Source: Escherichia coli
Lineage (GTDB): Bacteria > Pseudomonadota > Gammaproteobacteria > Enterobacterales > Enterobacteriaceae
Assembly: GCF_036507355.1 (NCBI RefSeq)
Contig: NZ_AP027877.1
DNA: 64,000 nucleotides
Strand: one strand, 5' to 3'
Positions 46,064 to 46,899 of this stretch are shown in pieces. The position numbers were made by a program, and so were the translations under genes. Below the pieces are notes generated by a model. It saw nothing but the letters and a program-made list of their open reading frames with translations. It ran no database searches and was not told the DNA's origin. The number at the start of each line of letters is the position of its first letter. Positions within the stretch are counted from its first letter, which is position 1.

Positions 46064-46093
46064 AGTGCTTGCACTGCCTCTAAACAATCTGCA

Positions 46094-46131
46094 TGCACAT
46101 CTCGTTGACTAAATTTGAAACGAGATGTGCA
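46094..46131 (+). terminator. 13-bp perfect inverted repeat hairpin immediately downstream of the ABC ATPase gene (possible terminator or regulatory site)
   Basis: tgcacatctcgtt ... aacgagatgtgca; no strong T-run. Confidence 0.4.
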
Positions 46132-46899
46132 TTGCTCGTTATAAAAATAAGGCATGTTCTAATTATCCAATCCCCATCAGTATAAGTGGGTGGATAGATA
46201 TATTTGGCCCCTTTAACAGATATGTTAATTTCCACTTTTCGCTTACAGTGGACCTGCAGCTCAGTAACTTACTCACTTTGTGCTAGGAACGGGCATTGCT
46301 AATAGTCAGAGTGTATGACCTGCTCATCGTTGATTAAGGACAGCGCTGTACTGGTTCGTTGAACCCACGGCTCACAACGGACACTCAGGTTATTATTCCA
46401 ATACGTTTAGCTCAAGTAGTATTACTACGGATAAATCATTTTATGATGGCGTGGAGAACGGGGGGATTCTGAAAATGGTAAGAAGTGAAAGGGCAAGAAG
46501 AGCTTGTTGCAGGTGGACGGACTGGTGAAGATTCCCATCTGGAGGGTGTATGCTGCCAAGTTTCCCCGCTTGCTATTGGGGATTTCCCCACCTTATTCCC
46601 CGCGACAAAATCATGTTAAGACCAGCGGATTAAGGAGAAATGATAATTCCCCCGTTTTCCCCGTATTTTCTACTTCATTATGAATGATCTGAGAGAAAGG
46701 AACCGTAGAGGACCGTAGAAAGACCGTAGCAGTGAGGTTAGGAAAAGGTACATCAGAGGATGTTGAGGTGTCTAAAAGTAACGAACATCTGCGAAAATGG
46801 CGAGAAATCCAGCAAACAAATAACGTGTTGCAACGACCAGAAATCTACCGTAGCCAAGAAAGGAAAAAGCCCCGCTTTGCAGCGAGGCCTTATGAATAT

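Follow-up and report, generated by a model that had tools for sequence, protein, structure and literature searches.

A conserved non-coding block beside pheV in Escherichia coli: a probable integrase-side attachment arm of a tRNA-Phe island family

In the 64,000-nucleotide stretch of Escherichia coli contig NZ_AP027877.1 analyzed here (the window), the tRNA-Phe gene pheV is separated from an operon of the ABC-3C type by 836 bp without genes (46064-46899). The part of this gap next to the tRNA, which begins at about 46371 or 46426 and runs to 46899, is probably the integrase-side attachment (att) arm of a genomic island that targets tRNA-Phe, and the ACCGTAG repeats within it would be arm-type or excisionase sites. 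The textbook example of such an arm is the P' arm of phage lambda, where the arm-type sites P'1-P'3 lie 50-85 bp from the crossover. As in the lambda attP P' arm and attL intasome, three closely spaced direct repeats (here ACCGTAG) flank the core on the integrase side, a distinct N-terminal domain of arm-binding type is present in the integrase, and the other arm carries a repeat pair of its own. The two differ, however, in that the sites described here are about 90 and 215-240 bp from the crossover, no consensus for integration host factor (IHF) was found in or around the arm (46400-46960), and kilobases of cargo separate the integrase gene from the arm.

A second parallel is KplE1 (CPS-53), whose attL at argW contains IntS arm-type sites together with TorI sites and overlaps the autoregulated intS promoter (PMC2951348). 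Heterobivalent integrases bind the arm-type repeats with their N-terminal domain and the core with their C-terminal domains (PMC2951348). In KplE1 and in the pheV island alike, tRNA and integrase gene share one orientation with the att arm between them, and a copy of the repeat recurs in the region upstream of the integrase gene. This copy suggests, by analogy, that the island integrase may be autoregulated in the KplE1 manner. In KplE1, however, the promoter overlaps attL within about 220 bp, whereas here the arm is contiguous with the integrase-upstream region only in an empty variant (strain 0H25, with nothing in the cargo slot and 716 bp between integrase and tRNA). An integrase promoter inside the att arm, as in KplE1, was not seen; no promoter-like site is present in 45900-47100.

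In gene content, the island resembles the enterobacterial pipolins. The pipolin core, located near a tRNA, comprises two tyrosine recombinases, DUF2787, a WYL regulator, and orphan genes, and rare pipolin-like islands lacking piPolB have been noted, while the paper that describes them does not describe att arms (PMC11551731). The same core set is present at pheV, in what is likewise a defense island at a tRNA 3' end with exchangeable defense cargo (PMC11551731). Unlike pipolins, the island has DUF927 in place of piPolB (no polymerase is annotated in a complete element of 21.7 kb, in which the replication-type gene is DUF927), it uses tRNA-Phe rather than tRNA-Leu, and it has an extra cargo slot between integrase and att site. 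The islands form a family that targets tRNA-Phe in Enterobacteriaceae and has a pipolin-like backbone without the pipolin polymerase. DUF927 genes are also found in the mobilizable islands MGIVchHai6 and MGIVflInd1 (PMC7449626). These too are small, integrase-bearing islands with a DUF927 protein next to recombination genes, but they target trmE and yicC, and their likeness to the pheV island rests on one domain. AcaCD or SetCD sites, mobI, and oriT were not seen in the pheV island, though no search was aimed at them. Lastly, the P4- and CP4-type islands at pheV and pheU share the target gene and occur in tandem arrays with the island. They differ from it in having the integrase directly beside the tRNA, a repeat of about 23 nt, and a crossover in the T-loop, as opposed to a 49-50-nt repeat and a crossover in the anticodon stem-loop; the integrase clade and the arm sequence differ as well. 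In the published literature, nothing specific was found on this island at pheV or pheU or on the att sites of Salmonella pathogenicity island 7 (SPI-7). The block is an unannotated example of a well-known kind of element.

What does the 836-bp gap consist of? Judging from the distribution of its matches, it is two unrelated pieces. Among 5426 complete E. coli genomes, the full length is matched in 3, all carrying the same ABC-3C cargo, while about 200 further matches start at query positions 308-363 (window 46371-46426) and extend to 46899. Because the left part is found only with this cargo and the right part is widespread, 46064 to about 46370 belongs to the cargo, as the 3' trailing (untranslated) sequence of the ABC-3C operon on the plus strand, and lies outside the att arm. 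The conserved non-coding arm itself, equivalent to attL or a P' arm, occupies 46371-46899, with a distal boundary between 46371 and 46426 depending on the variant. The initial annotation had proposed the entire gap as the attL regulatory arm of an island; comparison supports this for the right-hand piece and not for the left, which includes the inverted repeat noted there. That the gap is composite had gone unremarked, as had the tRNA terminator described below.

The arm encodes no recognizable protein, in agreement with the earlier remark that the region lacks a convincing open reading frame (ORF). The longest ORFs are at most 59 aa or extend through the tRNA, and across 15 related sequences the frames are broken by indels. 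The sole stop-free stretch, on the tRNA strand at 46858-46753, has no conserved start, acquires stops in two variants, and shows substitutions spread 13:12:15 over the three codon positions. A small protein, whether from this 34-codon frame or from the plus-strand ORFs, was rejected on these grounds.

A more sensitive search finds the block in 221 of the 5426 E. coli genomes at 75-100% identity, unannotated in all. In each of nine contexts inspected, its direct neighbor is tRNA-Phe, at pheV or pheU and on the 3' side of the gene, or else a tRNA-derived repeat of 22 nt that a different, later-inserted island left behind. A motif-independent search for relatives of the integrase, with one genome per species, yielded loci from Pseudocitrobacter, Kluyvera, Buttiauxella, Enterobacter, Citrobacter, and Erwinia. 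In all, the arm is found in seven other genera, placed alike and each time beside a P4-type integrase with an arm-binding domain, and tRNA-Phe lies upstream wherever the contig extends far enough. Comparing window and Citrobacter, the tRNA-proximal 200 bp of the arm are 74% identical versus 51% at integrase third codon positions; for window and 0H25, the tRNA-proximal arm and the third positions give 76% versus 65%. As these integrase positions have diverged further than the arm, the conservation of the latter points to purifying selection and not merely to recent spread. It is also patchy, with invariant blocks the size of motifs set in diverged sequence. Strain F11 combines an integrase that is 97% identical with an arm that is 66-81% identical, a mismatch indicating that recombination shuffles the parts.

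The anatomy of the arm was read from an alignment of 15 sequences from 8 genera. In the tRNA direction, from the CCA end outward, the order is a hairpin with a T-run, one CTACGGT (the inverse of ACCGTAG), a spacer of about 115 bp, three more CTACGGT copies (46729-46702), then TTCATAATGA, and finally a GGGGA(A) cluster. Three direct ACCGTAG repeats with 10- and 11-bp spacing occupy 46702-46708, 46712-46718, and 46723-46729 (feature 46702-46729, plus strand), and these are the candidate integrase arm-type or excisionase/regulator sites. A fourth exact copy, also on the plus strand, is at 46847-46853, about 90 bp from the crossover, with the triplet at about 215-240 bp. All four had been listed in the initial annotation, in which the last was placed near 46855. 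At the background rate, about 0.006 copies would be expected on one strand in 152 nt (probability of at least four, about 5e-11); the whole window holds nine copies on both strands, the five outside the arm being scattered. Of the 15 sequences, 13-15 retain TACGGT at each of the four positions: the two copies of the triplet nearest the tRNA in 14-15, the third in 13, and the isolated fourth in all. The repeats are thus conserved in related islands, and a lack of conservation there had been named beforehand as part of what would count against the initial reading. The position is likewise nearly constant: most loci have the ACCGTAG-N4-ACCGTAG pair nearest the tRNA at 171 nt from its end, and Erwinia has it at 168 nt.

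Between the fourth copy and the triplet, the spacer (46730-46846) is highly conserved, for example at CAGCAAACAAATAACGT and CAACGACCAGAAATCT, and is non-coding and without conserved RNA structure. Past the triplet, at 46675-46685, lies TCATTATGAAT, a conserved sequence that is partly deleted in two genera; its tRNA strand gives CATAAT, a possible -10 element. Farther out is the TTCCCC(G)/GGGGA(A) cluster (46456-46663), where earlier mention of several TTCCCCG-like motifs was borne out. TCCCC occurs directly at 46563, 46585, 46597, 46648, and 46658 and as inverted GGGGA at 46462 and 46578, that is, 7 copies in 221 nt with about 0.3 expected; the longer form TTYCCCCG is found at 46561, 46647, and 46656. 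A tandem TTCCCC pair at 46645-46663 is mirrored by 46450-46468, and GGGGA is kept at six positions in 7-13 of the 15 sequences. It is the sole strong cluster of the motif in a complete element, where two weaker ones lie in coding and intergenic sequence.

The cognate protein is a tyrosine integrase (38366-39553, minus strand) in which a domain search finds an N-terminal Arm-DNA-bind_3 domain (residues 10-101, E = 1.5e-13) followed by a central and a catalytic domain. Its gene is 6.8 kb from the arm, beyond the cargo slot, and in the loci inspected it always has the orientation of the tRNA and lies on the far side of the cargo. Upstream of it is a conserved region (39554-39800) with an invariant inverted ACCGTAA (minus strand, 39704-39710) about 150 bp from the start codon. 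The features that mark the block as an att arm are 3-fold. (i) It lies beside the core at the target junction. (ii) The integrase has an arm-binding domain. (iii) The repeats are conserved at a fixed position. On the model of lambda Int at P'1-P'3, the N-terminal domain of the integrase would bind the ACCGTAG repeats while the catalytic domain holds the core, and in this way an intasome would be assembled. Through the inverted copy upstream of its gene, the integrase could also regulate its own synthesis, as in KplE1. The TTCCCC/GGGGA cluster would be bound by an accessory protein, which might be an excisionase, the second recombinase, or a replication protein.

Where does the crossover occur? 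Intact elements are 21.7-31 kb long, and at their far end the 3' part of the tRNA is repeated over 49-50 nt (window 46900-46948), the repeat ending in the 5' half of the anticodon stem; such direct repeats are seen in BKQWHE, YZ22MPE54, and RCAD0514. More telling is E. coli GPEC1189, in which an element with an arm 100% identical to that of the window is inserted cleanly in the aminopeptidase gene frvX (L001:12780-12900, L029:18820-19020). At the insertion point, intact frvX reads GGGATTTTAAATCCC (L028:1470-1510), a near-copy of the tRNA-Phe anticodon stem-loop GGGGATTTTCAATCCCC. The two junctions are reciprocal, the right one having C, from the element, and the left one A, from frvX. From this difference we infer strand exchange within AATCCC(TT), at window positions 46943-46948 and on the 5' side of the anticodon loop. 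The insertion of an identical arm further indicates that the module attached to it is, or recently was, recombinationally active. The GGGGAT motifs, which resemble the anticodon stem, were considered as core-like sites and are disfavored, since in frvX the junctions locate the crossover at AATCCC, with A/T-rich symmetry in the flanks.

The opposite (left, or attR-side) arm has a repeat pair of its own. Three left-arm variants are mosaics of each other (L007:25097-25300, L012:33961-34140, L027:676-860), and all keep CTACCA(T/G)-N4-CTACCAT at 120-140 bp from the crossover; in the RCAD0514 arm, the first 60 bp or so resemble one type and the remainder the other, a sign of recombination inside the arm. 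The CTACCAT copies are direct repeats 11 bp apart and the sole adjacent (paired) copies of the hexamer in a complete element. Read inversely, CTACCAT is ATGGTAG, which matches ACCGTAG at 5 of 7 positions in inverted orientation, and there is no exact ACCGTAG copy on the left arm. The resemblance is suggestive, not conclusive, of one protein binding the repeats of both arms.

Several points weigh against assigning the whole block to integrase binding in an att arm. The left-arm repeat departs from ACCGTAG at 2 of 7 positions, and its binding partner may be a different one. Three tandem repeats in phase suit an excisionase filament as well as they suit arm-type sites, and no excisionase gene was recognized, Pfam giving only DeoR-like and WYL helix-turn-helix (HTH) proteins in the island. 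The lack of an IHF consensus, mentioned above, counts here too. At 470-530 bp, the arm is longer than most characterized att arms, and part of it probably does something other than att function. Finally, ACCGTAG is invariant in all relatives found, so that no co-variation with the integrase links the motif to that protein. Two candidates for a more distant integrase were set aside: a 56%-identical integrase on an Aeromonas plasmid adjoins DUF2787 and not tRNA or arm, which makes it uninformative, and L025 proved to be the second recombinase of the island.

Might the repeats, then, serve a different protein? It is possible, if unlikely, that an excisionase or transcription factor, and not the integrase, uses the ACCGTAG triplet as its operator, at and upstream of the -35 position of a weak promoter directed toward cargo and integrase (CATAAT, tRNA strand, 46684-46679), so that the role of the att arm would be regulatory or directional and not structural. 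Contiguous repeats at 10-11-bp spacing resemble lambda Xis sites. Three such repeats also recall the TorI sites of KplE1 (PMC2951348), the island encodes small HTH proteins, and CATAAT, kept in 12 of 15 sequences, comes right after the triplet in the tRNA-to-integrase direction. But no promoter here passes a consensus scan, CATAAT is partly deleted in Buttiauxella and E. asburiae, the cargo genes of the window converge on such a transcript, and domain scans of the island proteins detect no member of the Xis/AlpA family; arm-type sites account better for the lone fourth copy and for the inverted one upstream of the integrase gene. An RNA product is highly improbable. If the block encoded a small or structured RNA, transcribed for instance from the tRNA strand past the terminator, this would agree with consensus folding of that strand: over the G-rich cluster it beats column shuffles (z -3 to -9), and the strand asymmetry is compatible with G-U pairing. 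At -9 to -13 kcal/mol per 120 nt, however, the energies are small, and shuffled alignments score near zero, making the z-scores unreliable; the helices are GGGGA pairing with TCCCC motifs, and the best-conserved part (46730-46860) has no structure on either strand. Moreover, a strong terminator precedes the block, that of the tRNA being the sole one called, and there is neither a promoter-like site nor an Rfam match at E<=10. The small RNA that the initial annotation had offered as its other option is accordingly not borne out, the tRNA terminator being the one conserved structure.

The TTCCCC/GGGGA cluster (46456-46663) raises a question of its own, namely, whether this distal half of the arm belongs to the intasome at all. 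It is rather improbable that it forms a separate cis-acting device, such as an origin for the DUF927 replicase or a platform next to the integrase on which a second island protein, such as the second recombinase, captures or controls defense cassettes; if it did, the gap between integrase and att site would be a purpose-built defense slot common to pipolin-like islands, islands of the locus of enterocyte effacement (LEE), and plasmids derived from integrative and conjugative elements (ICEs). The narrower proposal, that its repeats are iterons of a replication origin bound by the DUF927 protein after excision and merely adjoining the att arm, is very doubtful. The origins of P4 and of phage-inducible chromosomal islands are built from such iterons, and here a stretch of about 220 bp has 7-9 copies of a short motif in both orientations, including paired tandem units that mirror each other at a distance of 176 bp, in the one strong cluster of a complete element. 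Origins are usually located beside or inside the replication gene, though, whereas here integrase and cargo intervene. The block also persists without DUF927 in a LEE island and on Klebsiella plasmids, and the DUF927 gene is dispensable for mobilization in a related type of island (PMC7449626). Could the block simply be functionless filler that looks conserved through recent spread of the island? Many copies are near-identical, and the island in the window is a decayed remnant, yet the conservation in excess of integrase third codon positions for the same pairs, the motif-sized invariant blocks, and the survival of the block through exchange of cargo and of integrase alleles (strain F11) leave this reading scarcely credible. 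An integrase-side att arm with arm-type or excisionase sites thus remains the probable explanation.

The arm also supplies its target gene with a terminator. An intrinsic terminator for tRNA-Phe, with an 11-pair stem, a 4-nt loop, and a T-run, is encoded on the minus strand at 46891-46866; it is called by the terminator scan, and its folding energy is -20.8 kcal/mol (z -4.0). Where 0H25 and Citrobacter have substitutions in it, pairing survives on the minus (tRNA) strand only, and the native pheU terminator was found displaced to the far junction of an intact element. Together, these observations show that the island replaces the terminator of the tRNA with its own. The inverted repeat in the cargo tail is a different matter. 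Previously given as 13 bp at 46094-46131, it is indeed there, with perfect 14-bp arms (46093-46106 and 46119-46132) around an A/T-rich 12-nt loop, on the plus strand 30 nt past the ATPase stop codon, and it is present only with this ABC-3C cargo. It lacks a U-tract and is not called by the terminator scan, though the 101 nt around it fold as RNA at -30.8 kcal/mol (z = -4.8). This hairpin may be the 3' end or a stabilizer of the cargo operon.

The slot between integrase and arm holds, in the window, a metallo-beta-lactamase-fold gene and three ABC-3C genes (trypsin-CTD4, middle component 1, and an SMC-like ATPase) on the plus strand at 40067-46063; with flanking sequence, about 6.7 kb separate the arm from the conserved integrase-upstream region. 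Outside the empty variant, the cargo that divides the two measures 1-7 kb. Other E. coli carry SIR2 with an ATPase, SIR2 with a tetratricopeptide repeat (TPR) protein, a restriction enzyme, a 588-bp ORF, or, in 0H25, nothing, and the cargo in other genera includes a dCTP deaminase, a PtuA-like (Septu-like) pair, SIR2, AbiTii, and PD-Lambda-1, among others. Among the loci examined for the slot (window 39800-46430; L003, L008-L010, L013-L024), an Mrr-like nuclease was also seen. Variable defense cargo between a fixed integrase family and the arm identifies the gap, on comparative grounds, as a hotspot for defense genes with the arm as its fixed tRNA-side flank. How might cargo be exchanged? Because the arm and the integrase-upstream region are conserved and the content between them is variable, both probably also act as homology flanks for swapping. 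An arrangement resembling integron cassettes, with cargo flanked by direct repeats of about 30 bp, was suggested by alignment and rejected, as local alignments at the boundaries in 9 loci were no better than shuffles (p = 0.27-0.93).

Two further observations concern the recombinase genes. The two recombinase genes of the island have in common an upstream 28-nt element, GTAAY-N12-TGAAA(A/C)ACATATT (window 39764-39791, minus strand; L009:~1083, L018:15423, L024:~10568), which may be an operator that they share. In several variants, a stand-alone protein of about 117 aa is encoded between DUF927 and the integrase (L003:910-1266, L008:7268-7618, L009:4943-5293, L027:19146-19502). It consists of the Arm-DNA-binding (DUF4102) domain alone and could compete for the putative arm-type sites; at this place the window has an unrelated 139-aa ORF (37819-38238).

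The copy of the island in the window is no longer intact. The tRNA (46900-46975, minus strand) points its 3' end toward the gene-free stretch, with yqgA and speC following pheV, and to its left the island runs outward through the 836-bp gap, the cargo, the integrase, a DUF927 region, and a DUF2787 block. Past the integrase come the DUF927 gene, the second recombinase, and then the block with DUF2787, the WYL regulator, and a GmrSD-like gene. An insertion sequence (IS) with an rve transposase (34469-35125) has cut the second recombinase down to its C-terminal 176 aa (region 34469-35636). Another, of the IS3 family, at about 26114-27342, joins core DNA on the glcA side to a fragment of a type I methylase gene (27343-27570). 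When up to 3 mismatches were allowed, the 3' part of the tRNA matched nowhere in the window except in the tRNA itself, and an attR within the window was rejected: the far end of the island, attR included, was deleted by the IS3-family element. The island in the window is thus a stranded remnant that cannot excise, and its arm is a half-site.

The arm occurs in other settings as well. In the LEE island of E. coli O103:H2 12009, an arm 83-84% identical forms the tRNA-proximal end (L002:8001-8494, L026) and adjoins a 22-nt tRNA repeat that stems from a CP4-type island. There is no integrase on the LEE side, IS3 copies interrupt its far end, and this variant of the arm is carried by about 80 genomes. 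In addition, the arm together with the 49-nt part of tRNA-Phe is present on 8 Klebsiella conjugative IncFIB/IncHI1B plasmids (e.g., pS141.1, L030:8700-9320), where its direct neighbors are a ParA-like ATPase and ICE-type (TIGR037xx) transfer genes. The plasmid collection yielded no close homologue of the integrase, and the plasmid arm has the look of an att junction left over from a tRNA-Phe ICE.

Overall, function and boundaries can now be proposed for a block carried, without annotation, by about 4% of complete E. coli genomes and by several other genera, and the attachment site of a tRNA-Phe island family is defined with its core, crossover, both arms, and candidate protein sites. The frvX insertion indicates that the integrase recognizes the shape or sequence of the anticodon stem-loop, which makes integration possible inside protein-coding genes. 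The gap between integrase and att site is a recurrent anti-phage slot, filled for example by ABC-3C, SIR2, a Septu-like pair, dCTP deaminase, AbiTii, or PD-Lambda-1. Conserved as it is beside a variable defense slot, the arm provides a practical marker both for finding defense cargo and for delimiting tandem islands at pheV and pheU, the LEE included.

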